In this document: positions 2-56,350 of the stretch, in pieces | Numbering within the stretch: position 1 is the stretch's first letter | Layout of the letters: every line of letters begins with the position of its first letter | Assembly: GCA_038212075.1 (NCBI GenBank) | Contig: JBBQUV010000001.1 | Span: forward strand, 99,200-163,199 | DNA from: Minisyncoccia bacterium | Lineage (GTDB): Bacteria; Patescibacteriota; Minisyncoccia; Phycocordibacterales; Phycocordibacteraceae | Reading direction: 5' to 3' | Length of the DNA stretch: 64,000 nucleotides | The notes under the pieces: generated by a model | Told to the model about the DNA's origin: nothing | Database searches by the model: none | The model's input: only the letters and a program-made list of their open reading frames with translations | Made by a program: the position numbers and the translations under genes

Positions 2-3000
2 CCAGACATCACCATTCCCCTTGGCGTGGTGGTTACGGCTCTTCCTGGTGCGTCTGCGGCAGATGTTGAGCGCCTTGTTACCGACAAAATTGAGAGCGGC
101 GTGCTTGGTGTTGAGCATGTTTCAAAAGTTACTTCGTCTTCAGGAAACGGTATCTCGCAGGTATCAGTGGAGTTTGACGCTAGCGCAAATATTGATAAAT
201 CGATTCAGCTTTTAAAAGACGCGGTTGATAAGGTTCGTCCCGATCTTCCAGAAGAAGCGCTTGCTCCATCAGTATCAGACGTAAACTTTGCCGACCAACC
301 CATTCTGGTTGTTTCGGTTTCCGGTAATCTTGCCGACGGCGAACTTACTGCTCTTGGTGAACAAGTGAGCGATGAAATAAAACGAGTGTCGGGTGTTTCA
401 AAAGTGAGTGTTTCTGGTGTGCGCGCTCGGCAAGTACAGGTAATTGTGAGGTCTGAACGCCTTGCACAGTACGGCCTTTCTTTGCAGGACGTTACCAATG
501 CCATTCGTTCTGCTGGTATCGCCGCACCTGCGGGGGACATCACGGTAGACGGTGTGCGCTATGCAGTGCGTTTTGAATCAGGCCTTGCGACGACCGATAA
601 GGTGGCAAGCCTTGCTATGCCGGGCCCGGGTGGCACACCGGTGCATATTTCTGATGTCGCCGATGTGGTAGACGGTCTTGCTGACGCAAGCACCTATTCA
701 CGTGTTTCTGTCGGTGGAAAGCCAGCACAGCCATCACTGACTCTTACGGTGTTCAAAAGCCGTGGTGGCAACATCGTTGCAACGGGTAATGCGGTTATTA
801 AAAAGTTTGATGATTTGAAATCTGGTATTCTCGCTGGCACCGACACGGTTATTTCTTTTGACGGCGCAGAACAAGTAAATAAAAGTCTTACCGAACTCAC
901 TCGTGCTGGTATTGAAACGGTTATTTTGGTTATGCTCGTGCTGTACGTCACTCTTGGTCTTCGTGAGTCGCTTGTTGCCGCGGCTTCTATCCCACTCTCC
1001 TTTCTTATCGCCTTTCTTGGCATGTATGCCGCAGGCAACACGCTCAATAACGTATCGTTGTTCTCACTCATTCTCGCTATTGGTATTCTCGTGGATTCGG
1101 GCATTGTGGTGGTGGAAGCATTTCACACTCGTCTGTTGAAATTCGGTAATAAAGAAGAAGCGGCAGTTGCCGCTATTCGTGAATACGCGTGGCCACTGAT
1201 TGCAGGAACCTTTACCACCATTGTGGTATTTCTACCGCTCTTCTTTCTTTCGGGTATTGTCGGCAAATTCCTTGCAAGCATTCCGTTCACGGTGGTGTTC
1301 GTACTTCTTGCCAGCATCTTTGTTGCACTTGGCCTGGTTCCCCTTCTTGCGATTTTCTTTGTGCATCCGGTGCATGGCGACCTTGAATCTCGCCAAGAAA
1401 GATACAACGTGCTTGTACGCACCTGGTACCAAGGATTTCTTCGTCGCCTATTGCAAAACAAGCGTGATCAAAACCGATTTCTTATTGTTGCTATCGTACT
1501 TTTTTTCATAGCGCTCGCGCTTCCGGCAACGGGTCTTTTAAAGTCCATTTTCTTTCCGCAGGCAGATTCTGACTACATTTATGTTCAAATTGAAAAAGCC
1601 CAAGGCACAGAACTCTCTGAGACCGATCTTTCAGTGCGTGAAGTGGAAGAAGTGCTTTACCATAATCCGCACATTGCATCGTTTGTGAGTGCGACAGGTA
1701 TTGGCAGTTCGTTTGCCGGCGGCGGGCTTGGTGGCGGTCCTTCAGCCAATAGCGAAATCGGTAACATCACCGTAAATTTGCCGAAAGGCCACACACAAAC
1801 CAGCGCCGCACTCGTGAATGAATTGCGTCAAGCGCTTTCCACGATTACGTCCGCAACCATCACCGTAGGAGAACCGCAGGGCGGACCTCCTTCCTCGTCT
1901 CCAATCACCATAACCTTCTCTGGAAACGATCTTGGCGCACTCGCGGTAACCGGCGACGCGGCGACGCATACGCTGTCTGATATTCCGGGCGTGGTGAATA
2001 TAAACACAAGTACAAAAAATTCTGGAGCGGAATTTGTGGTAACGCTTGATAGCGCCAAGGCAACCGAACTCAATGTATCGCCCGTAGTGGTGGCAGACAC
2101 GCTTCGCACGGCGCTTTTCAGTGCAAAGGCAACATCTATTCGTACCGGCAAAGACGATATTGAAGTGCGCACCAAACTTGACTTGAATCCTGCGTACAAG
2201 GATCCGAGCGAAACCACGCACGTAACTATTGACGCCGTTCGCTCACTCGCTATTCCAAGCCCAACAGGTACCGTTCCTCTTTCAACTATTGCCACTATTA
2301 CCTACGAACCTGCACAAACCTCTATCGCGCACGAAGCAGGTACGCGCATCACTACGGTAACGGCAGACGTTGCACAAAATACTAATGCGATTGAAGCCAC
2401 GAATACGTTTGTAAAACAATTTACCGCAGACAAGATTGCGCCAGGCGTAGTGATGAAAATCGGCGGCGCGAGCGAAGATGTAAATAAATCATTCACTGAA
2501 CTCTTTATCGCACTTATTGCGGGCGCGGCGCTCATGCTTTCCATTCTTATTCTTGAATTTAACTCGTTCCGCCACTCTTTTTACCTGCTTTCCATCATTC
2601 CGCTCTCGCTTATCGGTGTGTTTGCCGGGCTTACGCTTGTCGGACAGCCGCTTTCGCTCACTTCCATGCTTGGTGTTATTGCGCTTGCGGGTGTCATCAT
2701 CAATCACGCGATTATTCTTATGGACTCTATCGCGCGCATTCATCGTGAACACAGCGAACTTGGACTTGAAGATGTAGTGATTGAAGCGGCATCAACACGT
2801 CTGCGCCCCATTTTGCTCACAACGGTAGTGACGGTTATCGGTATGATTCCGCTTACGTTTGCATCCGCTTTCTGGGGACCACTTGCCTTTGCAATTATGT
2901 TTGGTCTCGCCTTCTCGCTGTTCCTTACGCTCGGACTTATTCCCATTCTCTATCATCGGTGGCCAGGTAAGGCGGTACGCGAGCACTACGCACAGAGGGG

Positions 3001-3007
3001 GCAATAG
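2..3007 (+). CDS. RND family efflux transporter permease (AcrB/HAE1-like), 5'-truncated by window edge
   Basis: 993-aa ORF whose reading frame continues upstream of position 26. Multi-TM C-terminal half and porter/docking-like periplasmic segments resemble AcrB-family proteins. Confidence 0.8.
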   Translation, partial: PDITIPLGVVVTALPGASAADVERLVTDKIESGVLGVEHVSKVTSSSGNGISQVSVEFDASANIDKSIQLLKDAVDKVRPDLPEEALAPSVSDVNFADQPILVVSVSGNLADGELTALGEQVSDEIKRVSGVSKVSVSGVRARQVQVIVRSERLAQYGLSLQDVTNAIRSAGIAAPAGDITVDGVRYAVRFESGLATTDKVASLAMPGPGGTPVHISDVADVVDGLADASTYSRVSVGGKPAQPSLTLTVFKSRGGNIVATGNAVIKKFDDLKSGILAGTDTVISFDGAEQVNKSLTELTRAGIETVILVMLVLYVTLGLRESLVAAASIPLSFLIAFLGMYAAGNTLNNVSLFSLILAIGILVDSGIVVVEAFHTRLLKFGNKEEAAVAAIREYAWPLIAGTFTTIVVFLPLFFLSGIVGKFLASIPFTVVFVLLASIFVALGLVPLLAIFFVHPVHGDLESRQERYNVLVRTWYQGFLRRLLQNKRDQNRFLIVAIVLFFIALALPATGLLKSIFFPQADSDYIYVQIEKAQGTELSETDLSVREVEEVLYHNPHIASFVSATGIGSSFAGGGLGGGPSANSEIGNITVNLPKGHTQTSAALVNELRQALSTITSATITVGEPQGGPPSSSPITITFSGNDLGALAVTGDAATHTLSDIPGVVNINTSTKNSGAEFVVTLDSAKATELNVSPVVVADTLRTALFSAKATSIRTGKDDIEVRTKLDLNPAYKDPSETTHVTIDAVRSLAIPSPTGTVPLSTIATITYEPAQTSIAHEAGTRITTVTADVAQNTNAIEATNTFVKQFTADKIAPGVVMKIGGASEDVNKSFTELFIALIAGAALMLSILILEFNSFRHSFYLLSIIPLSLIGVFAGLTLVGQPLSLTSMLGVIALAGVIINHAIILMDSIARIHREHSELGLEDVVIEAASTRLRPILLTTVVTVIGMIPLTFASAFWGPLAFAIMFGLAFSLFLTLGLIPILYHRWPGKAVREHYAQRGQ

Positions 3008-33323: not shown

Positions 33324-34535
33324 TCATTGCTTCATGGTGAGGATGATTTCCTCCACGCCATTAGGCAGGTTGGTAACGCGAACGTCACTCAGGCCAACGC
33401 CTTTGTGAAGAACGCGCATTGCCGGCTTGCCGGGACGTGCCGGTTGGACGAGCACGAACGGGTGCTCGCTGTCGACTGCGGGCGCGGGGCCTGCATCGAC
33501 AACCGGTTCTGCGGCCGCCGGAGCGGTCTGCGGAACCGGTGCTGAGGCAACCGGCGTTTCCGTCGGTTGCACCGCGTCTGGAACGAAGCAGAAGTTGGAA
33601 TTCAGCTTCTGATCCTCCATGCCGGAAAGGTCGTTCCCGCATTCGCGCAGGAAGTACACAACCTTCCGTTTGCCACTCGGCAAACGCGCAAAGCCACGGA
33701 ACGCCCGCTGGCCGGTGTGGTTGAAGCCCTCCACACGGCCGTCACCAAACCGGACCATCCGGTAACCCCACACGCGTCCGGAGGTTACCTGTTCTATCTT
33801 GAGCTGAGCGGCCGGTATTCCGGTCTGCCGAGCGGCGATGTCGAGCAGGTGTGTGCTCGCATCTTCAAGATTGTTCACCCCGCCATGAATGACTGGCGGG
33901 CCGGCGTTTACCGGATCGCGGTTCATTTCAAGCACTCGGTCCTGTACGGTCCGGTCGGACCTACGGGCCGCGCGCTCCCTTGCGAGATCGGTGAGCGCTG
34001 TCTCTGCGCGACGATACTCGTCGTTCCAGTTGCTGTTCAGTGCTTTGGCACGCTCCCGCGCACGATTGCGTTCTAGCCACAGGGCAAGAGCAATCGCCGC
34101 AAGAATGGCGAACAGAAGCCAGAACAACGGCAGGATGCCGTCGAACCACCCTGATGCGACGACAGGTTTGGAAGCTGTCGCATGCACAGCCTTTGGCTGT
34201 GCCGGAGGTGGTACGAACGCCGGCTTTTGTATGTCGCCGGTGTTGGTGAGTCCCTGCAGGCACTCGCCGGGTTTGAGGATCAAAATGGTGATCCTCTGAC
34301 CGTTCACGAATAGCCGGCCAGGCTCATGAATCTGGAGATTTGCATCCCAGACCCATTTGCGCCACGACGTGGCGTCGTGGTGATATTTTTCGGCGAGTTG
34401 CCACGCCGTATCACCCGTTTGAACCGTATAGCCATTGCATGGCGGTACGATCCAGTTGGATTGGGTGGTTGCAAATGCCGGCGTTGCCGCAAGCATCAGG
34501 AGCGCGATAAGCGCCATCACAATTTTTTTTCGCAC
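33324..34535 (-). CDS. LysM domain-containing membrane protein, GC-rich gene
   Basis: Signal peptide, LysM motif (YTVQTGDTAWQLAEKY), central TM helix, about 220-aa C-terminal domain of unknown function; local GC about 60-65%. Confidence 0.65.
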   Translation of the reverse strand: MRKKIVMALIALLMLAATPAFATTQSNWIVPPCNGYTVQTGDTAWQLAEKYHHDATSWRKWVWDANLQIHEPGRLFVNGQRITILILKPGECLQGLTNTGDIQKPAFVPPPAQPKAVHATASKPVVASGWFDGILPLFWLLFAILAAIALALWLERNRARERAKALNSNWNDEYRRAETALTDLARERAARRSDRTVQDRVLEMNRDPVNAGPPVIHGGVNNLEDASTHLLDIAARQTGIPAAQLKIEQVTSGRVWGYRMVRFGDGRVEGFNHTGQRAFRGFARLPSGKRKVVYFLRECGNDLSGMEDQKLNSNFCFVPDAVQPTETPVASAPVPQTAPAAAEPVVDAGPAPAVDSEHPFVLVQPARPGKPAMRVLHKGVGLSDVRVTNLPNGVEEIILTMKQ

Positions 34536-38695: not shown

Positions 38696-39937
38696 TTAGG
38701 GGGTGTCTACAGTGACCGTAATTTTTGTAGGATCAGCTGGATATGCGCCCCGCCAGAAAGGTCGGAGATTTATGATTGCTTGGCCAATTTCCGGAAACCC
38801 ATCGCTTAGCACTGATTTTGCCGCCGCGGAGCTTTTACCAGCAACCGCACCCGCAATCCTAGCCTTATCAATGTCCCAAACGACAGAAGCGGTTCCTGAA
38901 AGAGTGAAGGAATAGGGGGTATTTGCGGCAGGAGCGGTCTCGGCAACTGCGGGTGTGAGGGCAAGGCCGCTCACTGCTTTTAGTGTTACCAGCTGACCGG
39001 TATAGTCTTGACCGGCCACTTGGCTTGCAATCGCTTTTGCAAATGCAGACGCGGGGAACACCACCGCAGTCGCGGTTGCTTGCTCTTTAATTAGTACGCC
39101 ACCGTTTGCGTCTGCGGAGTCTGGAAGCGGTGCATAGGCCGTGACGACGCTACCGGGGATAAGTACGTATCCGTCGGGAACCTTTGGTGAAATTTCGGCC
39201 GAAATAGTGCCTGCGAGCGTTGCTTTCAATTTTGCGTGCGCCGCATCATCAGTTGCTTGGCTTACTGAAGGGCGTTTACCCGTAAAGCCGCCAGCCATAG
39301 CGCTTGTAGACTTTGCATACACTAACTTCGCTTGCGGTGTTGCCGAAAGTCCAGGGAGTGTAAAGCTGGTTGCGCCAATGTTGTAACTTTCGCCTGCAGA
39401 ATCGGCATAGACAGTGGCAGTAACTGAACCCGGTGTTCCGCCTTTTGCGGGAGGAATCGTTACGGAGTCGTGAATACGGAAAATAAGTCCGGCAGAGGTC
39501 TGAAGACGGGTATTTTTTATCAGGTCTTGCGATTTTGCTTGCTCGTTGTACATAGTGACCGTTCCTTGTGCGGTATCGTTAGCGGCAACGGTGCTTTCCG
39601 CAGGAACGCTTTGACTCGCCACCTTTTGCACGGTAACGAGCGCAAAGGGAAGGTCGCCTGAAGCGGGGGTTGCGATGAAGGGGCCCGCCACCGTACCCGT
39701 GCTTACTTTCGGCACAATTTCAACTTCGTTGGAAGAAAAGAACATAAGTACGCCATACGAAGCGAGAACAAGAAAAAGGCAAACACCTGCGGTAATCCAT
39801 GGGAATTGATGCCGCGGAAGACGGGCATACAGCGGTGGACGTGACTCAGGTGGTGGCGCTGGTTCGTACTGAGGAGTTGGGGCATCGCTTACGCGGCGGC
39901 GTGATGGAGGAATGATGTCATTTATGGTTCGTGGCAT
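38696..39937 (-). CDS. hypothetical membrane-anchored protein, Pro-rich cytoplasmic N-terminus, single TM, large extracytoplasmic Ala/Thr/Ser-rich domain
   Basis: 413 aa; architecture only, no recognisable catalytic motif. Confidence 0.5.
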   Translation of the reverse strand: MPRTINDIIPPSRRRVSDAPTPQYEPAPPPESRPPLYARLPRHQFPWITAGVCLFLVLASYGVLMFFSSNEVEIVPKVSTGTVAGPFIATPASGDLPFALVTVQKVASQSVPAESTVAANDTAQGTVTMYNEQAKSQDLIKNTRLQTSAGLIFRIHDSVTIPPAKGGTPGSVTATVYADSAGESYNIGATSFTLPGLSATPQAKLVYAKSTSAMAGGFTGKRPSVSQATDDAAHAKLKATLAGTISAEISPKVPDGYVLIPGSVVTAYAPLPDSADANGGVLIKEQATATAVVFPASAFAKAIASQVAGQDYTGQLVTLKAVSGLALTPAVAETAPAANTPYSFTLSGTASVVWDIDKARIAGAVAGKSSAAAKSVLSDGFPEIGQAIINLRPFWRGAYPADPTKITVTVDTP

Positions 39938-39988: not shown

Positions 39989-41140
39989 TCACGCACCAAG
40001 ATCGTCAATACGTTTGCCTTGGTACAAAGCAAGCATCATAAGGAAGAGGTCGGCAGAACCGCTTGCGCCAATTTTTATGTGAGGCAAAAATTGTGACGCA
40101 AGCACAGGCAGGATAGAAAGTGGTTCGTCTGAAAGCCACAACGTACGCAAGCGGCTATCATCGAGCGCGTGTCGAATATAGTCACGAACAGGATCGTCAG
40201 AGAGAAGGAATATGGTGCGCGGGAGCGCGTGTCGTTCAGAATATGCTTTCAAGGCTTCCAAAATTTCAGTAAGCCATGTATCTCGTGCCTCAGAAATATT
40301 GGCTGTTTGATTTTTGATAAGGTGAACCCCATCTTTTACTTCCTGCATATCGGAAGTTGGCGGCACAGCGTTTCCGAGTGTTTTTAGCAGATGATGCACG
40401 CCGTAGGGCACGGAAAGCACGGAAGAAAGGAATCCGTGTCTGATAAATACCATCTCGGTTGCCTCTCCCGTAACGTCTATCACCATAAACTCACGTTCGT
40501 GAGGATACATATCCCGCAATACAATGTAGGCAAGCGGTGCGAATGCGGTAAAAGTGATGTGGTGTGAGTGATACGACGCACGAAGCGCCTTGCGCACTTT
40601 GTCGGTTATGGATTCTTCAACGGTTGAAGACAGGATGACAATCTCGGCTAATTTTGCCTGCTTGCCAAACGGTTGGCTTGTCTGGTATCCGTTTAATCGC
40701 ACAGCGATAGCAGATTCTCCAGAAGATATTCTTCCTGTCGGCAATTGTGCTGTTTTCTGAACCACTGTTTGCAACATTGCTCGGGTGAATGTGAATGGTT
40801 TAGCTTCCTCGATGCGTTCCAGACGCACCTTGGTGTCTTGCCATGGTGCGGCAATGGAAACAAACACTTCCCCTACGCTTCCGGAACCGGTCGCGCGGCG
40901 TAGTGCTGAAGCACCTGCGATAGTGAGTTCTTTGTTTACGGCAACGAGAGCACGAAGCATTGACGACTCAACGGATTCATCAGGGTGTATGGTAATGGGC
41001 ACACGAACCGCATATTCCAGCGTTGGTCCATTTTTACCGAGCGAAAGATACCCACCGCCAACGGAACCAGACCCGATATCAATCAGCGCAATAGAGGTTG
41101 ATCCAAGTGAAAAAAAATTCCCAAAAAGACCCATGCACAA
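39989..41140 (-). CDS. actin-like ATPase (ASKHA superfamily) protein; FtsA/PilM/Ppx-like fold, function unassigned
   Basis: N-terminal phosphate-1-like IALIDIGSGSVGGGY, then a second glycine motif (MVIDVTGEATEM) and an overall two-domain layout of about 380 aa. Confidence 0.45.
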   Translation of the reverse strand: MCMGLFGNFFSLGSTSIALIDIGSGSVGGGYLSLGKNGPTLEYAVRVPITIHPDESVESSMLRALVAVNKELTIAGASALRRATGSGSVGEVFVSIAAPWQDTKVRLERIEEAKPFTFTRAMLQTVVQKTAQLPTGRISSGESAIAVRLNGYQTSQPFGKQAKLAEIVILSSTVEESITDKVRKALRASYHSHHITFTAFAPLAYIVLRDMYPHEREFMVIDVTGEATEMVFIRHGFLSSVLSVPYGVHHLLKTLGNAVPPTSDMQEVKDGVHLIKNQTANISEARDTWLTEILEALKAYSERHALPRTIFLLSDDPVRDYIRHALDDSRLRTLWLSDEPLSILPVLASQFLPHIKIGASGSADLFLMMLALYQGKRIDDLGA

Positions 41141-47430: not shown

Positions 47431-47958
47431 TTACGGATTGGTGTGGAAGAGTGCGATGACACGCTGTCCTGAATCGTAATCAACATACACACTGTCGGCA
47501 TGAAGATCAAATACCCCGTCACCATCATCGCGATAGAGGACAACGGCGTAGGTTTGTCCGGGAAGCGTGTTGCGAAGTAGATGTACCGCGACATTTGATT
47601 CTGAGCCCGCGGTGCCGGCAACACCAAGGATATTACCCAAATCGTTTCCGTGCAGTTCTACTATCGCAACCCATACACCGGGAGCAGGAACAGAAACCGT
47701 ATCAACCACAGCGGCATTGCCCGCGTCTTGATCGTGCACCGTAAGAAGCCCTGAGGAGACGTGTTCTTCAAACCCAGAATTGGTTGTTGAAGAGGTATTA
47801 GGAGTGGCGTTGACCGTATTCTGTGCCGCGCGTAAATCAGTTTCTACAAACCACGCGCTCGCGCACAGCACACCAAGAAGAAAACTGATGCCAGCAATAA
47901 CCACCCCATGACTTTGGCGTGGGGCAGGTGAAAGCATTAGTTCGGTGCTAGGCGTCAT
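47431..47958 (-). CDS. hypothetical membrane-anchored protein
   Basis: N-terminal TM helix, no recognisable domain. Start at internal ATG (MTPSTEL). Confidence 0.45.
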   Translation of the reverse strand: MTPSTELMLSPAPRQSHGVVIAGISFLLGVLCASAWFVETDLRAAQNTVNATPNTSSTTNSGFEEHVSSGLLTVHDQDAGNAAVVDTVSVPAPGVWVAIVELHGNDLGNILGVAGTAGSESNVAVHLLRNTLPGQTYAVVLYRDDGDGVFDLHADSVYVDYDSGQRVIALFHTNP

Positions 47959-48820
47959 ATACGGTTGTTTCGGACAAACTGTTAATTTCCGAGAGTATAG
48001 CGCCAATTCGTTCCGGTGTAACGCCAAACTTTCGCAAGACAGTTCGGTGCTCAAGAAGCATTGCTGAAGTTACAATTCCCTGGTCTACCAGAAGGCGTTT
48101 TTCAGACCGTTTTAGATTTGTAAGCGTCGTGACGGGATAAATACCAGCGCTGATAATACGATCGTATAAATTGCCCTCATCGGGGAAACTCCAGCCAAGA
48201 AGTTCTAGGCCGGCGCACATAGAATATTCAATGGCCTGACTCGTGAATTTAGTATTTGTAATAAGCATTCCGCGTCCAATAGGACAATTGCGTACGCGCG
48301 GATCGCAATGCCAAATATCTTCAAACCGCGCTTTCACATAGAGTGCTGTTTTTACATCCGTTTTATAAAACGCATCGTTGTGGTATTTCAGTTCTGCGGC
48401 AAGCGTCTCTTTTCCGCGTGTCGCGTACACATCTACTTCGTGGGTAACACACTTTCCTTGTATAATCTTGCGCCACTCCACATTCCACCCTTCGGCTTTA
48501 AACAGTTGCGCAACAAAATCTTCAAACGGATGTCCTGAAGGACCGAACTCAAGAAGCGCACGACGGAGAGCATAGCGTGCGGCAACCGAACGTGCTTCGC
48601 GGCGCAACATGGCAAATGCTTTGCGATAAATTTCTTGAGATCGCACCTCGCTCCCCATGGCGGCCGTAATGGTGTGCGTAATGCGTTCTGCGGTATGTAT
48701 GCCTGCGCCAGCATGACGCAGTGACGCAATCAATTTTTCTCCATCAAATCGTTCAATCGAACCGTCGGTTTTAACGATGGATGCGGCACTTTTTGAACGT
48801 ACAGTGAATCCTTGTGGCAT
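47948..48820 (-). CDS. ATP-cone domain fused to PD-(D/E)XK (Mrr-like) restriction endonuclease domain
   Basis: N-terminal ATP-cone (IVKTDGSIERFDGEKLIASLRHAG), then a nuclease core with D...ExK (HEVDVYA...AAELKYH). Confidence 0.65.
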   Translation of the reverse strand: MPQGFTVRSKSAASIVKTDGSIERFDGEKLIASLRHAGAGIHTAERITHTITAAMGSEVRSQEIYRKAFAMLRREARSVAARYALRRALLEFGPSGHPFEDFVAQLFKAEGWNVEWRKIIQGKCVTHEVDVYATRGKETLAAELKYHNDAFYKTDVKTALYVKARFEDIWHCDPRVRNCPIGRGMLITNTKFTSQAIEYSMCAGLELLGWSFPDEGNLYDRIISAGIYPVTTLTNLKRSEKRLLVDQGIVTSAMLLEHRTVLRKFGVTPERIGAILSEINSLSETTVYDA

Positions 48821-48822
48821 AG

Positions 48823-49227
48823 CTAAGGAGTCGTCGTTGCGAATGCGCCATTCGTGTAAAGCATGACAGGAGCGTTTGCGGGCGCAGACACTGAAAGAGT
48901 GAAGGTGTGCGGTGTAAGAAGCTGTAAACACATTCCTTCATCCACCGGCGCCGCAAGGTCTACACGAATCGTGGGCGTACTTGTACTGTCAACAAGTGAG
49001 CTGGTAGCTGAAAGTGCCGTACAGGCCGTCGGCACACTCGCCGTCACCCGCACAGTATGAACACCTTTCGAGTATTTATTGGTGAGCTGTATCTCCGTAA
49101 TGGCCGCGTTACCCGAATCAAGCATTGGTGTTTCTGGAGCGGTGCTCTCCGTAATATGAAACACGAAGACTCCAAACGCAATGATTACGACCACTAAAAA
49201 GATTCCTGTCGCCATCCACTTCTTCAT
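48823..49227 (-). CDS. hypothetical secreted protein (134 aa)
   Basis: Signal-anchor followed by a Ser/Thr/Ala-rich domain. Confidence 0.45.
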   Translation of the reverse strand: MKKWMATGIFLVVVIIAFGVFVFHITESTAPETPMLDSGNAAITEIQLTNKYSKGVHTVRVTASVPTACTALSATSSLVDSTSTPTIRVDLAAPVDEGMCLQLLTPHTFTLSVSAPANAPVMLYTNGAFATTTP

Positions 49228-50316: not shown

Positions 50317-51324
50317 CTAGTCTAGGTACTTCGCACGGTTTATTTTGTGCTCAGCAAAGGTTTTTGCGTAATGCATTAGTCCATCTTGACCCGTTAGGTA
50401 ATAGAGCGCGTCGGTTTTTATAGGTGTAACCGCGGCATAGATAGAGTTCGCGCTTGGGTTTCCAATGGGACCGGGCGGAAGCCCTTTGTGCGTGTAGGTG
50501 TTATAGCTTGAATCTGTTTTTAGTTCACTAAATCTTGGACTGTACGTATCCCGGTCGTTAATGTATCCGAACACCGCATCTACTTGAAGCGGCATGCCGA
50601 GGCTAATGCGGTTCCATAAAATACCCGCAACCATTTGCTTCTCACTTACCGAGCGTGCTTCTTTTTCAAGAAGCGAGGCCATAATTAAGTCGTCTTGGAG
50701 CGGTTTATTAAACGCCGTGACTACGGAAGCAAGGTCTGCTTCATGCGTTTTAAAATTGTCATACATTTTTGCCACTACTTCGTCCGAAGTAGTATCAGGA
50801 TAAAAGAAATACGTATCGGGGTAGAGATATCCTTCCAGAGGAACGGCTTGTGCAAGGAAGGCATTGGTATTGAAATCAGGAAATGCCGCAGTCAGCTGAC
50901 GCGCCATATCACGCACGGTCGCACCTTCTCTGAAAGTAATACGCGTTGCGGTAATGCCAAATACACCACCTTCTACCCGCGATTCTATTCCAAATAACCC
51001 CGCAGGGCTTGCAAACACGTATCTACCTGCTTTTGCACTGCCACCCCGAAGTCGTCCGAGTACGGTAAACAGAAAAGGTGAGCGAATCACATGTTGCTCG
51101 GCAAGGCGTGCTCCAATACTAGTGAAACTTGAACCTTCGGTGACGTTTATAATTTTACCAACAGGAAAGTCTGACGGTGGCGCAAGAAAAATATACCAAC
51201 CAGAAAGCACGAGTACAGCAACCGCAAGTATCGCTGAAAGATATTCAGTTTTTAACCGCGACACGTTCATTTCTATAACGGCAAATGTTGTTTTTGCCAT
51301 TTGTATAAAGAGTGAGTCGTTCAT
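50317..51324 (-). CDS. mltG: endolytic murein transglycosylase MltG (YceG family)
   Basis: N-terminal TM helix, then a YceG-like domain (YPDTYFFYPDTT..., LQVDAVFGY). Confidence 0.8.
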   Translation of the reverse strand: MNDSLFIQMAKTTFAVIEMNVSRLKTEYLSAILAVAVLVLSGWYIFLAPPSDFPVGKIINVTEGSSFTSIGARLAEQHVIRSPFLFTVLGRLRGGSAKAGRYVFASPAGLFGIESRVEGGVFGITATRITFREGATVRDMARQLTAAFPDFNTNAFLAQAVPLEGYLYPDTYFFYPDTTSDEVVAKMYDNFKTHEADLASVVTAFNKPLQDDLIMASLLEKEARSVSEKQMVAGILWNRISLGMPLQVDAVFGYINDRDTYSPRFSELKTDSSYNTYTHKGLPPGPIGNPSANSIYAAVTPIKTDALYYLTGQDGLMHYAKTFAEHKINRAKYLD

Positions 51325-52754
51325 TATGTGGGAAGGTTGGACGGTGCTTCTGTCGTTGCTGACTGAATACGGGGCAAATTTGGTGCCGCAACCGTTGATG
51401 AAGGAATGTGAAAGAGTGAGGCAATTTCTTCGTTACTCATCTGCATATACGGTCCAATATACGGGAAATGAAAATATGAACGCCGACGCGCAAATTCAAG
51501 CGCTTCCTCCATTAAGTGCTGACGACGGGTACCCTTCGGGTCTTCCCATGGAAAGTCGTTCAATTCTTCAGAGAAAAGCGTGGCAGGTTTTAGATAATTC
51601 AACTGTTCTGAAGTATAGGGTCGGAATATTTGCGTAACAAATGCGCCAATATAATCGCGGTAGTGCCCTTCTTTTGCAAAGTAAATGGAACGAATGCCAA
51701 CATCCCACCCAGGCTTTGCGACATTGCGCTCAATGGCGGCCATTGTTTCGCTGTCACCCTTGCTTGGGTTTGGAAAGCCGTCAGATTCTCGTTTTTCGTG
51801 AGTAACGGGGTCGGTAAAGATTGTTTTTTTAACGGTACTTTCTTTAATTTTTTTAATTTCTTCTTTTGCTTCATCACGCCACGTGTATCGCTTGCCGTCC
51901 TTGTACACACTTTCATACCCGTGTTTTTCACCTTTCGTATAGCGAATCATAATGTGAATCCACAATTGTTCGTTTGGACCCAGTGACCCCAAAAACTCAA
52001 TCACTTGCGCCATGGGATCAGTTACCTCTTCCGGTTCCGGTGCTGGTTGTTTATCCATCAAATAATCCACGTACGTTTTAATAGGGTACGGACTTGGTTT
52101 ATCTTTTTTATATTCGCAGGCAAACATTTGGTACGGTGGCTGTGTCGGGTCAACAAGACGCGTATAGTCCACCGCCTCCACTACTTCAATGCCAGGATAT
52201 TGTGCATAGAAATACGTTTCAACAATATGCCGCATTGGTGCACGCACCCATACATATAAATGCACGCGTCCACCAAGCGACACCATTTCAAGCGAATACC
52301 ATACGCGTGTGCGGCCAAGCCACCAGCGCTTGTACCACGTCCCTTGTCCCGGGGCGATGTGAATGTTGGACAGAATTACTTCCATGGAAAGCGGGGATTT
52401 CAATGTTTCTCGAGGGATACGCAATTCAAGAAGTACGTTGCGTTGCGCCACGTTAAAACCATACTGTCGCGAATCTACCCACCGCACCCATGCATTTTTA
52501 CCAAGAAGAAAAGTAAGCCATACCGGTGAAAGGAGCATCACCATTTGAAAGTTGTACAGCGCTTGTTGCGGGTACAAAACAACAAAAATGACGTTCACTA
52601 CCGCAAACGGTATGGAAATCGCATTAAACGGGATTTTAAGTCCATTTTCTTCGTGGAGTTTGTGCCGGATGCCGTCAACAAATGAAAACAACGGCAAACT
52701 AAGTCCACCTCCTTTTCCGCCAGTACCTGACATTGCAAAAAGTATACCACCCAC
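51324..52754 (-). CDS. hypothetical membrane protein (476 aa), translationally coupled to mltG
   Basis: Two N-terminal TM helices then an about 380-aa soluble domain. The stop overlaps the mltG start (ATGA). No recognisable domain. Confidence 0.55.
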   Translation of the reverse strand: MGGILFAMSGTGGKGGGLSLPLFSFVDGIRHKLHEENGLKIPFNAISIPFAVVNVIFVVLYPQQALYNFQMVMLLSPVWLTFLLGKNAWVRWVDSRQYGFNVAQRNVLLELRIPRETLKSPLSMEVILSNIHIAPGQGTWYKRWWLGRTRVWYSLEMVSLGGRVHLYVWVRAPMRHIVETYFYAQYPGIEVVEAVDYTRLVDPTQPPYQMFACEYKKDKPSPYPIKTYVDYLMDKQPAPEPEEVTDPMAQVIEFLGSLGPNEQLWIHIMIRYTKGEKHGYESVYKDGKRYTWRDEAKEEIKKIKESTVKKTIFTDPVTHEKRESDGFPNPSKGDSETMAAIERNVAKPGWDVGIRSIYFAKEGHYRDYIGAFVTQIFRPYTSEQLNYLKPATLFSEELNDFPWEDPKGTRRQHLMEEALEFARRRSYFHFPYIGPYMQMSNEEIASLFHIPSSTVAAPNLPRIQSATTEAPSNLPT

Positions 52755-52792
52755 AAAACAAATACCGAGGCATATGCCTCGGTATTTGTTTT
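52755..52792 (-). terminator. terminator (16-bp perfect palindrome)
   Basis: aacaaataccgaggca-ta-tgcctcggtatttgtt with T-rich 3' arm. Confidence 0.6.
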
Positions 52793-52809
52793 GTTCTTTG
52801 CGGCCTTGG

Positions 52810-53880
52810 TTAGACCGCGGCGTACTTGCCTTCTTTGGTGCGTTTAAAGTAACGCGTGTCGTTAAGATTCACCAAGATAGTGTTGTCTTTTACGTAGCGA
52901 ACCTTCTTTACTTCTTCCATGACGCGTTCGCGCGTAAGAGCACCTTGTGCTTTTAGAATGTCGCGAATAACATCACGCACCACTCCTGGTTGGTAGCCCC
53001 ATTCTGCAAGCGCATAGAGGCCACGACCAACAAGTACGAAACGAGGATCTTTGATCAATTCGTTGTGTGTCGTTGCAACATGTGCCTTCTTTGCAAACAT
53101 AGTGCTGATGGTTTTTGCAACATCAGAGAAGTGCATTGGCTTACCGTGTTGCTTGATAACGAGAAACGCGTAGTCGCGGATTCCTTTTGTTCGAATGGTT
53201 GGACTTGCGGCACGACCCCATTCTGAAAGAGGATTCGATGCGATGGTCTTTGAAAGGGAGAGCCAACGCTTCATTATTTCTTCGTTTTTGTAGGCATCGT
53301 TTACACCCTTAAGTTCATCAAGGAAACGGTCAAGAAGTTCGCCTTCCGGAAGCACGTCGCTGTCTTCAAGTGACGCATAGAGTGAAGAGAGTGCTTCATG
53401 CACTTTTTCTGCAGTCGTTGCATCAACATGCCATCGAGCATAGAAATCATCGGTTTCGCGTTCGCGGAAAAAGGCACTTCCTACAACGAGGAAGAAGCGG
53501 TAACGATTGCGAGTTTTTTCGTCTTTGGTAAGCCCAGCAAGAAGTTCATCTTCAGGAACGATCCCACCAAGAGACTCAATGTGGGAACGGAGTGTTTCAA
53601 AAACGGGCTCTGCGTCTTTAAATGATTTACTTGCACGAACAGCGTCAAGACCAGCGCCTTCAATCTGACGAACGCGCTCGCGAGTAATACCCCAACCCTC
53701 GCCGATTTCCTCAAGCGTCTGACGGTCTGCCGATGTACCAAGGCCAAAACGGAAGGTAAGAACCTCGCGGGCACGGTCAGGAACTTCAGAAAGAAGTTTT
53801 TTAGTAAGGGCGGTTGTGTCCATAGAAAACGCCGCGGGAGTAGTTTTTTTCTTTGAAGGGGTGGTTCCGGTTTTTGCCAT
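52810..53880 (-). CDS. sigma-70 region 4-like HTH fused to C-terminal HARE-HTH domain protein
   Basis: N-terminal VLTFRFGLG...TLEEIGEGWGITRERVRQIE (sigma region 4.2) and a C-terminal segment (...DPRFVLVGRGLYALAEWGY) matching the HARE-HTH signature of RNAP delta-like proteins. Confidence 0.6.
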   Translation of the reverse strand: MAKTGTTPSKKKTTPAAFSMDTTALTKKLLSEVPDRAREVLTFRFGLGTSADRQTLEEIGEGWGITRERVRQIEGAGLDAVRASKSFKDAEPVFETLRSHIESLGGIVPEDELLAGLTKDEKTRNRYRFFLVVGSAFFRERETDDFYARWHVDATTAEKVHEALSSLYASLEDSDVLPEGELLDRFLDELKGVNDAYKNEEIMKRWLSLSKTIASNPLSEWGRAASPTIRTKGIRDYAFLVIKQHGKPMHFSDVAKTISTMFAKKAHVATTHNELIKDPRFVLVGRGLYALAEWGYQPGVVRDVIRDILKAQGALTRERVMEEVKKVRYVKDNTILVNLNDTRYFKRTKEGKYAAV

Positions 53881-53923
53881 AAATGAAATGTGTTGTTATT
53901 TATACCAAATAGACCTATTTTAG

Positions 53924-56350
53924 TCAATCCACCACTATATTGATGATTTTACTGCGTACATAGACTACGCGTTTTGGTGTCTTACCTGCTATTGCCGTTA
54001 GTACCGTAGGTAGCTGGAGCGCCATGGCCACCACGTTAACCTCTTCCATGTCCGGAGCAATGCTGATATCGCCACGACGTTTACCGTTCACTTGCACGGG
54101 TACGGTTACCGTATCTGTCTCAAGCAACCGAGGGTCATACACTGGGCGTGTGGACGAGTGAATACTCCCCTCTCCGCCCGTTTTGTCCCAGAGTTCTTCA
54201 GCAAGGTGCGGCGCAAACGGGGCAAGCATTTTCAGTACATCCTGATAGGCGGTGTTTGGTACAGAAGTGAGGCCTTCCATGTCTCGCACAAGAACCATGA
54301 GCGCCGAAAGTGCGGTATTGAATTTAAATCGTTCGCTATCGCCAGCGCTTTTTGCTTCCGCTTTTGCGAGCATACGTAGTACCTCTTGCGATACTTCAGT
54401 GTCGGCACTCTTTTCCATAAGAGCAACCACTCGTTCCAAAAACCGACGCATCGCAGAGACGCCATCCAAATTCCATGGATAGTGCCCCGCTTCGTTGTAG
54501 GGACCAATAAAGGCAAGATACATACGTACGGCGTCGGTGCCAAATTCCTTCACTACGTCATCTGGGTTCACGACATTGCCCCATCGCTTGCTCATCTTTT
54601 GCCCATCGGTACCAAGAATAATGCCTCGATTGAAACGTTCATTAAATGGCTCCGATGTTGGGACGAGAGCCATGTCGTAAAGCGCTTTATGGAAGAAGCG
54701 CGCGTACAAAAGATGCATGGTGGTGTGTTCGCTCCCACCCGAATAACGATTCACCGGAAGCCATTTTTTCAGCATGGCTTGGTCAGAAAAATCGTGGTTG
54801 TCCTTTGGGTCAAGGTAGCGCAAGAAGTACCACGAAGAGTCTACGAACGTATCAAGAGTGTCGTATTCCGGTGTCCATCCTTCGCCAAAAATGCGTATCA
54901 CCCGTTCGTGAAGTTCTTTTGACGATGCAAGGGGAGCTTTGCCAGTGGGAGTGAAGTCTACATCTGTTGGGAGCGTCCACGGCAAATGCTCAGGTGGCAC
55001 CAAATGCGGCATACCTTCAGGGTCATAGACCACAGGAATCGGGCATCCCCAGTAACGCTGGCGCGAGACAAGCCAGTCGCGAATGCGGTAATTGGTGACT
55101 GCGACACCGCCTGCTTTTGCCACAATGTCCGCCATCGCCTCACGATTATTGCGTCCCGAAAATTCTCCAGAAGCAACGAGGGTTCCGTCACCCGTGAAGC
55201 ACTCTTCTTCATTTTTTGATGCAACAACCTGTAGGTGTGGGAGTGCATGTTTTTTTGCAAACACAAAATCACGTTCGTCGTGTGCAGGTACGGCCATCAC
55301 CGCGCCCGTACCATACGAACCAAGCACGTAGTCGGCAACATATAGGGGAATCTTTTCACCGCTTACTGGATTTACCGCCATCACCCCTTCAAGGCGCACG
55401 CCGGTTTTTTCTTTATTTTCTGAACGTTCTCGCTCGGTTTTCCGCTTGGTCATTTCAATATACGCCGCCACGTCCGGTTCGTTCTCAAGCACTTCAAGAA
55501 GTTCATTCAACAGCTTGTGTTCCGGAGCAAGCACCACATAGGTAACGCCATAAAGCGTGTCGGGGCGGGTAGTGAAGACTTCAATAGACACATCTGGAAT
55601 TGCCGCCACATCTTCAGAGGAAGCTTCGGCCGAAGGAACGACCTTGAATGAAAGTTTTGCGCCTTCCGACTTTCCTATCCATGCACGCTGAGCATCTTTG
55701 ATGTCTTCACGCCACGGAAGCGCATCTAAGTCAGTAAGGAGACGTTCCGCGTAGTCGGTTATTTTCATAAACCACTGCGTCAGGCGTTTCTCCACCACTT
55801 CTGTACCGCAACGTTCGCATTTGCCGTCCACCACCTGTTCATTTGCAAGTACGGTTTGATCTTTCGGGCACCATTTGACCGGTGCTTCACGACGCTCCAC
55901 AAGCTTGTGTTCAAACAGTTTCGCAAAAAGCCACTGCGTCCACTTGTAGTACTCCGGATCGCTCGTCACTACTTCTTTACTCCAGTCCAAAGACGTTCCC
56001 ATCGTACGAATTTGCGCACGCATGCGATCCATATTTTGATAGGTCCACTCTTTTGGGTCAGCGCCATTTTTCATAGCGGCGTTTTCAGCCGGAAGTCCAA
56101 ATGAGTCAAACCCAATAGGGAAAAGCACGTTCTTTCCCTTCATGCGCAGATATCGCGCATAGATATCGGTTACGGCGAAGGCATACCAGTGACCAATATG
56201 AAGATCGCCGGATGGATACGGAAATTCAAATAACAGGTAATACGGCTCTTTCTCAGTATTGGTGAGATCCGTGGTGTACAAGTCGAGTGCCGCCCATTTT
56301 TCTTGAGCGCGCTTTTCTATTTCCTGATGATCGTATCGTGGCATGGGCAC
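53924..56350 (-). CDS. leuS: leucyl-tRNA synthetase
   Basis: PYPSGDLHIGH HIGH motif, KMSKR (KMSKS), editing (CP1) insertion; 808 aa. Confidence 0.92.
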   Translation of the reverse strand: MPMPRYDHQEIEKRAQEKWAALDLYTTDLTNTEKEPYYLLFEFPYPSGDLHIGHWYAFAVTDIYARYLRMKGKNVLFPIGFDSFGLPAENAAMKNGADPKEWTYQNMDRMRAQIRTMGTSLDWSKEVVTSDPEYYKWTQWLFAKLFEHKLVERREAPVKWCPKDQTVLANEQVVDGKCERCGTEVVEKRLTQWFMKITDYAERLLTDLDALPWREDIKDAQRAWIGKSEGAKLSFKVVPSAEASSEDVAAIPDVSIEVFTTRPDTLYGVTYVVLAPEHKLLNELLEVLENEPDVAAYIEMTKRKTERERSENKEKTGVRLEGVMAVNPVSGEKIPLYVADYVLGSYGTGAVMAVPAHDERDFVFAKKHALPHLQVVASKNEEECFTGDGTLVASGEFSGRNNREAMADIVAKAGGVAVTNYRIRDWLVSRQRYWGCPIPVVYDPEGMPHLVPPEHLPWTLPTDVDFTPTGKAPLASSKELHERVIRIFGEGWTPEYDTLDTFVDSSWYFLRYLDPKDNHDFSDQAMLKKWLPVNRYSGGSEHTTMHLLYARFFHKALYDMALVPTSEPFNERFNRGIILGTDGQKMSKRWGNVVNPDDVVKEFGTDAVRMYLAFIGPYNEAGHYPWNLDGVSAMRRFLERVVALMEKSADTEVSQEVLRMLAKAEAKSAGDSERFKFNTALSALMVLVRDMEGLTSVPNTAYQDVLKMLAPFAPHLAEELWDKTGGEGSIHSSTRPVYDPRLLETDTVTVPVQVNGKRRGDISIAPDMEEVNVVAMALQLPTVLTAIAGKTPKRVVYVRSKIINIVVD

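Follow-up and report, generated by a model that had tools for sequence, protein, structure and literature searches.

What might be the task of a protein that carries the -35-reading domain of a bacterial sigma factor at its N-terminus and none of the other sigma regions? This question is raised by a gene in a stretch of 64,000 nucleotides from a Minisyncoccia bacterium (contig JBBQUV010000001.1, positions 99,200 to 163,199; in the following, the window is this whole stretch), a member of the Patescibacteria, also called Candidate Phyla Radiation (CPR). The gene lies on the minus strand at 52810..53880, starts with ATG, ends with a stop codon at 52810-52812 and encodes a protein of 356 amino acids (aa); position and length in the open reading frame (ORF) list are exactly those given in a first-pass annotation made from the sequence alone, and the identical protein is present in a public protein collection as P0001. 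Patescibacteria constitute a large share of bacterial diversity and their transcription regulation is almost unexplored. The protein analyzed here combines parts of two subunits of RNA polymerase, hardly any other bacteria have it, and its counterpart was called essential in the only transposon sequencing (Tn-seq) screen of Patescibacteria. We tentatively propose that it acts as a lineage-specific general transcription factor. In case it is a general transcription factor or a polymerase-bound subunit, gene expression in CPR would be defined by it to a considerable part and it would offer a target specific to this lineage, and the genetic tools that now exist in Saccharibacteria make these hypotheses directly testable.

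Domain architecture and conservation

The first-pass annotation had recognized a sigma region 4 helix-turn-helix at the N-terminus and a HARE-HTH domain toward the C-terminus, and profile searches support both, each with a score above the curated Pfam cut-off. The Sigma70_r4 match covers aa 29-82 with 46.7 bits (gathering score 24.1, E=2.2e-12) and the HARE-HTH (PF05066) match covers aa 236-294 with 30.1 bits (gathering score 25.9, E=6.4e-7); the Pfam search resulted in no further match and none to Sigma70_r2. The region 4.2 helix-turn-helix, TLEEIGEGWGITRERVRQIE, comprises aa 55-74 (53659-53718, minus strand), and the stretch DPRFVLVGRGLYALAEWGY comprises aa 278-296. The NCBIfam models of RpoD, RpoS, SigA and MzaA were matched over their last ~60-70 positions only and far under their cut-offs. 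The best score of a whole sigma model was that of RpoD with 50.7 bits (cut-off 555), the sigma70-ECF superfamily model reached 24.1 bits (cut-off 42.9) and the MzaA model NF041931 reached 58.8 bits (cut-off 800) over its positions 633-708, i.e., over region 4 only. All sequence matches in the PDB were likewise to sigma region 4, the best one being domain 4 of S. aureus SigA (4g6d). The sigma regions 2 and 3 are absent from the protein in the Pfam, NCBIfam and PDB sequence searches, as it had been read from the bare sequence. The model for the RNA polymerase delta subunit of low-GC bacteria, TIGR04567, matched aa 236-294 with 26.8 bits (E=4e-6; cut-off 42).

The three-dimensional structure was predicted by AlphaFold2 from an alignment of the window protein with 39 family representatives of 33-48% identity (n=40), which resulted in a model with a mean predicted local distance difference test (pLDDT) value of 94 and a predicted template modelling (pTM) score of 0.83. 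A disordered Lys/Thr-rich tail (aa 1-21) precedes the four helices of sigma domain 4 (aa 22-84, 53629..53817 on the minus strand, as for all segments given here), which was delimited by the Pfam match and by Foldseek superposition. It is followed by four successive modules, each with the canonical winged-helix order H-b-H-H-b-b (H, helix; b, strand): winged helix 1 (aa 85-152, 53425..53628), winged helix 2 (aa 153-228, 53197..53424), winged helix 3, which is the HARE-HTH domain found by Pfam (aa 229-297, 52990..53196), and winged helix 4 (aa 298-356, 52813..52989). The central ~150 aa, the structure of which had been left to be predicted, thus correspond to winged helices 1 and 2, and a further winged helix makes up the C-terminal 60 aa. 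In the model, the HARE-HTH domain contains helices at residues 234-245, 251-262 and 268-277 and strands at 281-283 and 288-291, and the C-terminus formed by winged helix 4 is folded and basic, with pLDDT values of 93-98 in this block.

In a Foldseek search against the PDB, sigma domain 4 superposed on the solved domains 4 of SigA and RpoS with a root-mean-square deviation (rmsd) of 1.0-1.5 Å at 36-47% identity. The whole-chain matches were weak, with template modelling (TM) scores of ~0.2-0.3, and were to other proteins with winged helices in tandem, namely UFL1/DDRGK1, the SelB C-terminus (1lva), Dcc1 and RPC62; the HARE-HTH region gave a local match to the RpoE-RpoC model 9a6y_A. For the middle region no sequence relative was found in the PDB. 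Long alignments to sigma-4/flap chimeras raised the idea that the helix at residues 85-103 might imitate, within the protein, the tip helix of the beta-flap; the rmsd over these alignments is 6.6-7.9 Å, this helix is not conserved and no sequence match is left once sigma domain 4 is excluded.

Conservation and charge are distributed unevenly over these modules. In 138 full-length sequences the mean frequency of the most common residue is 0.68 in the HARE-HTH domain, which is the most conserved part of the protein with 20 positions conserved to at least 90%, 0.56 in winged helix 4 and 0.53 in sigma domain 4, while winged helices 1 and 2 are variable with 0.34 each. The family median of the net charge is +5 for each of sigma domain 4, the HARE-HTH domain and winged helix 4, -2 for winged helix 1 and -1 for winged helix 2; in the window protein, winged helix 1 is acidic and winged helix 2 acidic to neutral. 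This pattern suggests three modules that would bind nucleic acids or other conserved partners, separated by a two-domain spacer. Within sigma domain 4, the stretch T66-R67-E68-R69-(V)-R71-Q72-I73 is invariant in the family alignment; T66, R67, E68, R69, R71 and Q72 are found in 40/40 of its sequences and are conserved to at least 90% in the 138 full-length sequences. They align with T583, R584, E585, R586, R588 and Q589 of E. coli sigma-70, residues known for their roles in -35 recognition. The basic patch beyond the recognition helix, corresponding to K593, R596 and K597 of sigma-70 and contacted there by activators, is not retained in the family.

The protein therefore differs from both of the polymerase subunits it resembles. 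With group 1/2 sigma-70 factors (RpoD/SigA, RpoS) it has in common domain 4 including the recognition helix TRERVRQIE, but this domain is located at the N-terminus instead of the C-terminus, it is followed by four winged helices, the activator patch is gone and regions 1.2, 2 and 3 are missing. As these regions are absent, the window protein can neither bind to the core clamp nor melt the -10 element. Its identity as a sigma factor was rejected because it is without region 2 and its remainder is winged helix, in line with the first-pass view that it is not a conventional sigma factor. With the delta subunit (RpoE) of Firmicutes it has in common the HARE-HTH winged helix, including the structural match to the RpoE-RpoC model. 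However, in delta this domain is N-terminal, whereas in the window protein it is internal and flanked by winged helices, the acidic disordered C-terminal tail of delta is absent and the protein is from Patescibacteria, not from Firmicutes. An identity as delta subunit was rejected in view of the score of 26.8 against a cut-off of 42 for TIGR04567 and of the missing acidic tail; like delta, the protein may nevertheless be a lineage-specific polymerase accessory. The sigma-like protein MzaA of anti-phage defence was also rejected as an identity (58.8 bits against 800).

Distribution in Patescibacteria and essentiality of the counterpart

The phylogenetic distribution, proposed earlier as a check, is that of a large family essentially confined to Patescibacteria. 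A word-indexed protein search returned at least 7992 candidates, the top 120 of which have lengths of 339-392 aa and identities of 71-100%; those that bear a name are labelled ‘sigma factor-like helix-turn-helix DNA-binding protein’ or ‘hypothetical protein’, and nearly all named sources are metagenome-assembled genomes (MAGs) of Paceibacterota, Parcubacteria or Patescibacteria. The closest Parcubacteria homologues show 70-75% identity. In an exhaustive search of the representatives of clusters at 50% identity, 555 clusters were found at E<=1e-30, and the matches listed among them are mostly full length with 35-49% identity. When each GTDB species was represented by one genome, at least 559 loci were confirmed; all locus counts given below refer to the best 80 of these (79 for promoters and hairpins). 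Except for two short contigs, these 80 loci are from Patescibacteria MAGs, including Kaiser-, Taylor-, Nomura-, Niyogi-, Yanofsky-, Uhr-, Nealson-, Staskawicz-, Buchanan- and Moranbacteria as well as Saccharibacteria. The two short contigs are labelled as Thermodesulfobacteriota (L009) and Spirochaetaceae (L030) MAGs, yet show Patescibacteria-type synteny around the family gene, and their labels are probably due to binning contamination rather than to a true occurrence outside of CPR.

The family is catalogued in databases and in two supplementary tables and is hence not a new kind of object. In Supplementary Data 1 of Meheust 2019, fam21714 comprises 1320 proteins with a median length of 346 aa, nearly one copy per genome, predicted to be cytoplasmic and annotated as ‘unknown’; its only Pfam domain is Sigma70_r4, it is present in 1250 CPR versus 2 non-CPR genomes and it is flagged as ‘enriched’ (PMC6744442). 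The main text of that study leaves fam21714 undiscussed (PMC6744442). A complete RpoD with regions 1.1, 1.2, 2, 3 and 4 forms fam00428, which occurs in 2026 CPR genomes (PMC6744442).

The second listing includes functional data. In Southlakia epibionticum, SEML1_0294 encodes a 349-aa protein in which PF04545 spans aa 27-72 and PF05066 spans aa 225-283 (Wang 2023 Tables S1/S2, PMC10633639). It is labelled ‘RNA polymerase sigma factor RpoS’, which is a mis-annotation according to the present analysis, its structure-based domain parse gives one tri-helical and three winged domains, and it is flagged as core family and as Patescibacteria-enriched (PMC10633639). By Tn-seq the gene was called essential throughout (ES/ES/ES), with 24 insertions in the input DNA and 1, 1 and 2 after selection, whereas the ATPase gene downstream of it, SEML1_0293, was called non-essential (NE/NE/NE; PMC10633639). 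Since SEML1_0293 is non-essential, the essentiality of SEML1_0294 is not a polar effect. The full-length RpoD of this organism, SEML1_0063 (regions 1.2, 2, 3 and 4), is essential by Tn-seq as well (PMC10633639). The main text of Wang 2023 refers to neither of the two genes SEML1_0294 and SEML1_0293 (PMC10633639).

The Saccharibacteria locus L079 and S. epibionticum ML1 have the synteny TopA, family gene and fused ATPase in common. SEML1_0294 was equated with the window gene because its length, its domain coordinates and this synteny of TopA, family gene and type IV coupling protein match. The window gene is almost certainly a member of the fam21714/SEML1_0294 family, as length (346-349 aa), Pfam content and coordinates, restriction to CPR and the coupling-protein-like neighbour agree, with no difference detected in these family features apart from the ATPase gene, which is not adjacent in the window's clade. 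By this correspondence the window protein is probably essential. That it could be a truncated or degenerate conventional sigma factor, a possibility raised together with the first-pass annotation, is contradicted by its full length, its conservation in hundreds of clusters and the essential counterpart. Aravind and Iyer, in the abstract of a 2012 paper, reportedly describe HARE-HTH domains in bacterial proteins that combine features of the RNA polymerase alpha subunit and of sigma, which may be the first notice of such an architecture; no domain resembling the C-terminal domain of alpha was found in the 356-aa protein by Pfam or in the model. In the literature searched, we found no analysis of the sigma-4/four-winged-helix structure or of its invariant -35-reading residues, nor of the pairing with a split VirB4/VirD4-like ATPase or of the contrast between an essential and a dispensable gene.

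A possible role in transcription and the expression of the family gene

It seems well possible, and is proposed here tentatively, that the family serves as a general transcription factor of this lineage, with -35-like DNA, RNA polymerase or both as its binding partners. This proposal is based on the sigma domain 4 that keeps the -35-reading residues, on the delta-type winged helix, on a conservation resembling that of core machinery and on the counterpart being essential beside an essential RpoD. Sigma domain 4 would recognize TTGACA-like DNA, such boxes also being located in front of the family gene itself, and it may dock on the beta-flap tip of RNA polymerase, as sigma does. The acidic and weakly conserved winged helices 1 and 2 might act as a rigid spacer, and the basic, conserved HARE-HTH domain, a relative of the delta N-terminal domain, might together with winged helix 4 form another contact site for nucleic acid or polymerase. 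In this way the protein would act at promoters, with a status comparable to that of RbpA and CarD in Actinobacteria or of delta in Firmicutes, and the neighbouring VirD4-like ATPase module described below would be a secondary partner or target. The comparison with RbpA and CarD, and with GrgA of Chlamydia, is a functional analogy, as there is no kinship to these proteins in sequence or fold.

Several points weigh against this proposal. The sequence specificity for DNA, the polymerase binding and the regulatory role are all deduced, DNA binding and polymerase association specifically from domain identity. The genomes also encode a full RpoD that has a region 4 itself, and the polymerase has a single flap tip, so that binding to the flap would need displacement of sigma or a sigma-free polymerase. 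No transcription gene is conserved next to the family gene, the sole conserved partner in the genomes being a VirB4/VirD4-like ATPase module of the membrane. Winged helices arranged in tandem often serve as protein scaffolds, HARE-HTH domains occur also in restriction enzymes and chromatin proteins, and the top whole-chain Foldseek matches are generic and weak (TM ~0.2-0.3). Finally, SEML1_0294 is a counterpart by length, domain coordinates and synteny, not by direct sequence comparison.

A bolder form of the general transcription factor proposal, which we consider unlikely, is that CPR possess an extra essential, subunit-like component of transcription, in which a second sigma domain 4, placed on -35 DNA or on the beta-flap, and a winged helix that sits on the polymerase in the manner of delta would replace or supplement the contact made by region 4 of RpoD. 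If true, the architecture of transcription initiation in CPR would differ from that of all other bacteria, and this component would be a permanent, host-encoded counterpart of the ‘sigma appropriation’ by phages. It might in addition tether promoters or polymerase to a membrane VirD4-like translocase for DNA or protein.

The family gene itself is preceded by a near-consensus sigma-70-type promoter (53899..53927, minus strand) consisting of the -35 hexamer TTGACT (53927-53922), which overlaps the stop codon of the LeuRS gene, a 17-nt spacer and TGgTATAAA with the -10 hexamer at 53904-53899. In 63/79 loci the 150 nt preceding the family gene contain the pattern TTGAC-N16-18-TAnnn[TA], compared to 2.8% of random 150-nt windows. 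From this it follows that the family gene is usually its own transcription unit and that the canonical -35 hexamer, which the invariant residues of sigma domain 4 would read, is in use by these bacteria. In a few loci the TTGAC boxes upstream of the family gene occur in tandem as two or three boxes, at a distance of 11 nt in L011 and L020 and of 5-7 nt in L008 and L038; these could be autoregulation sites for a -35-reading protein, or chance. No Shine-Dalgarno sequence is visible in the ~20 nt between the -10 hexamer and the ATG of the family gene (AATAACAACACATTTCATTT, 53881-53900, minus strand), and the mRNA would have a very short leader judging from these signals.

Downstream, the strong palindromic terminator that had been ascribed to the gene was recovered as an intrinsic-terminator-like hairpin at 52753..52794 (minus strand) with a 19-bp stem, a 4-nt ATAT loop and an RNAfold free energy (dG) of -31.1 kcal/mol. 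Its G+C core, CCGAGGC/GCCTCGG, is located between an A-tract and a T-tract, as in bidirectional intrinsic terminators, and a consensus terminator scanner missed the hairpin because the T-tract was counted into the stem. A hairpin with T-tract within 130 nt past the stop codon was found in 62/79 loci, a number given without background rate, many of these hairpins having a dG of -20 to -32 kcal/mol.

Conserved neighbours, alternative roles and the surrounding window

Directly downstream of the family gene, at 51324..52754 (minus strand), a 476-aa ORF encodes a membrane protein without any match in the Pfam and NCBIfam libraries and without a sigma region 2 match, the homologues of which carry the precomputed domain PF26449. 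A homologue is present directly downstream and on the same strand in 71/80 loci, and the pairing persists in the most distant family members, in which the synteny with LeuRS, MltG and MnmA is gone. The AlphaFold2 model of this neighbour (pLDDT 84) shows N-terminal membrane-type helices and an alpha/beta body, and for its soluble part the best match in the PDB, a weak one, was to VirB4/TrwK in the N-terminal region (7o43_A, E=4.5e-4, TMq 0.29; Foldseek). The listed GTG start codon (52754) falls within the 3' arm of the terminator, and the real start is probably ATG 52733 or TTG 52697, the latter with a strong GGAGGTG at 52712-52706; low pLDDT values at residues 1-20 agree with a later start. 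An extended -10 element, TGgTATACT, was read by eye at 52749-52741 (minus strand), with no good -35 hexamer.

In ~34/80 loci the PF26449 gene is followed by an ATPase gene with matches to TrwB_AAD_bind, DUF87/HerA and TraG-D_C, which by these domain matches belongs to the type IV coupling-protein class. In three loci both are fused to a protein of ~900 aa (L068:1560-4307, L078:7020-10067 and L079:7139-9829). In the window's clade no such ATPase adjoins the PF26449 gene, and there is none within the window. In most lineages of Patescibacteria such an ATPase comes after the PF26449 module or is joined to it, and the two resemble an ATPase of the coupling-protein type that has been split and is encoded at a distance from type IV secretion loci. 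It was published that the TrwB_AAD_bind family is present in 2083 CPR versus 30 non-CPR genomes and that 5713 VirD4-like genes occur in 2918 CPR genomes, i.e., ~two per genome, of which 148 are near virB4, the others being ‘possibly exapted for other functions’. The pairing described here thus bears on the role of these ~two coupling-protein-like ATPases per CPR genome.

The conserved neighbourhood is the basis of the main rival explanation, according to which the family protein is a DNA-binding adaptor of the neighbouring VirB4/VirD4-like membrane ATPase, marking or delivering DNA in the way TraM does for TraD, TrwA for TrwB and PcfF for PcfC. We consider this possible, although rather unlikely; a dual role in transcription and as adaptor is possible, too. 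Next to the persistent pairing with the PF26449 gene, its product's weak likeness to the VirB4/TrwK N-terminal region and the ATPases that are next in line or fused, this explanation can draw on TraG-D_C, the TraM recognition site according to the Pfam description, and on the VirD4-like genes of CPR being mostly far from virB4. However, SEML1_0293 is dispensable while SEML1_0294 is essential, and serving that ATPase is therefore not the sole role of the family protein. Moreover, the ATPase is lacking next to the gene in the window's clade and is absent from the 64 kb, the family gene and the PF26449 gene usually have separate promoters with a strong terminator in between, and no recognizable relaxase was reported for the Saccharibacteria (CPR) system. 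The likeness to the relaxosome accessories TraM, TrwA and PcfF is confined to the location near a VirD4/TrwB-type ATPase with TraG-D_C in other lineages; these accessories are ribbon-helix-helix proteins or helical tetramers and thus of a different fold, and the family gene resides in a chromosomal housekeeping context without relaxase.

Alternatively, the protein could remain bound to the polymerase without reading promoter DNA, its sigma domain 4 on the beta-flap tip of a sigma-free polymerase and its HARE-HTH domain on beta-prime, as in delta. Such a factor would have its role after initiation, be it in elongation, in termination or in recycling, and nascent RNA might be held by its basic winged helices in the way an RNA hairpin is held by those of SelB. 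Both recognizable domains derive from polymerase subunits that have their partners on the polymerase, the Foldseek matches include SelB (1lva) and the RpoE-RpoC model 9a6y_A, and the gene is highly conserved and its counterpart essential, as for a core subunit. Yet this explanation is doubtful: the solvent-exposed residues reading DNA are invariant, which pure flap binding does not require, and the match to the delta model stays under the cut-off with the acidic tail absent.

Even less probable in our view is a protein for chromosome organization, replication or segregation that re-uses the sigma-4 helix-turn-helix as one of several DNA-binding modules. Three basic modules of DNA-binding type on a rigid scaffold and an essential counterpart would suit such a function, as would the neighbours from DNA metabolism in some lineages (DprA and TopA in L079; TopA near SEML1_0294) and the ability of FtsK/HerA-class ATPases to translocate DNA. 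However, beyond the generic winged-helix fold there is no likeness to known nucleoid, Par, Rep or ScpB families, and the exact -35-reading residues are kept, pointing to promoter-like sites. Furthermore, FtsK is kept in CPR (published) and DnaA is present in S. epibionticum (PMC10633639).

One half of a two-subunit sigma factor, such as SigO-RsoA of B. subtilis, or the remnant of a decayed sigma gene is very improbable and largely refuted: region 4 is indeed present without region 2 and split sigma factors exist, but no region-2-like gene adjoins, the conserved neighbour being the VirB4-N-terminal-like membrane protein, the rest of the protein is winged helix and not sigma domain 2 or 3, a complete RpoD is kept in CPR (fam00428; SEML1_0063), and the family is conserved at full length in hundreds of clusters with an essential counterpart. 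For the same reasons two specific candidates were rejected, namely a split housekeeping sigma with an RpoD devoid of region 4, as CPR RpoD has region 4 (fam00428, SEML1_0063), and a decayed sigma pseudogene, in view of the family-wide full-length conservation and the essential counterpart. No RpoD is encoded within the 64-kb window; a single sigma region 2 match was observed at the cut end of the locus L067. An origin from phages or mobile elements was rejected as well, since phage genomes searched by tblastn and viral structures searched by Foldseek gave local sigma-4 or winged-helix matches only and the surrounding window is a housekeeping chromosome.

The 64-kb window represents an ordinary CPR chromosome encoding LeuRS, MltG, MnmA, YchF, several other aminoacyl-tRNA synthetases, DnaB, DnaK/DnaJ, FtsW and MraY, and it is most closely related to MAGs of Parcubacteria and Kaiserbacteria (L001, L002). 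For three large ORFs at 33324-34535 (403 aa), 38696-39937 (413 aa) and 39989-41140 (383 aa), all on the minus strand, Pfam gave no match at E<=1e-5, and they may be further CPR-specific proteins. The ORF at 47948-48931 (minus strand) contains an ATP-cone next to the catalytic domain of an Mrr-type restriction endonuclease; it is unusual for a domain that senses nucleotides to be paired with a nuclease fold, here inside a housekeeping block, and the ORF is syntenic in 19 related loci, where it follows MnmA. Finally, the ORF at 26-3007 (plus strand) encodes a full-length homologue of the AcrB/AcrD/AcrF transporters of the resistance-nodulation-division (RND) family (564 bits); RND pumps normally work together with outer-membrane partners, and such a transporter is unexpected in bacteria that are thought to lack an outer membrane.

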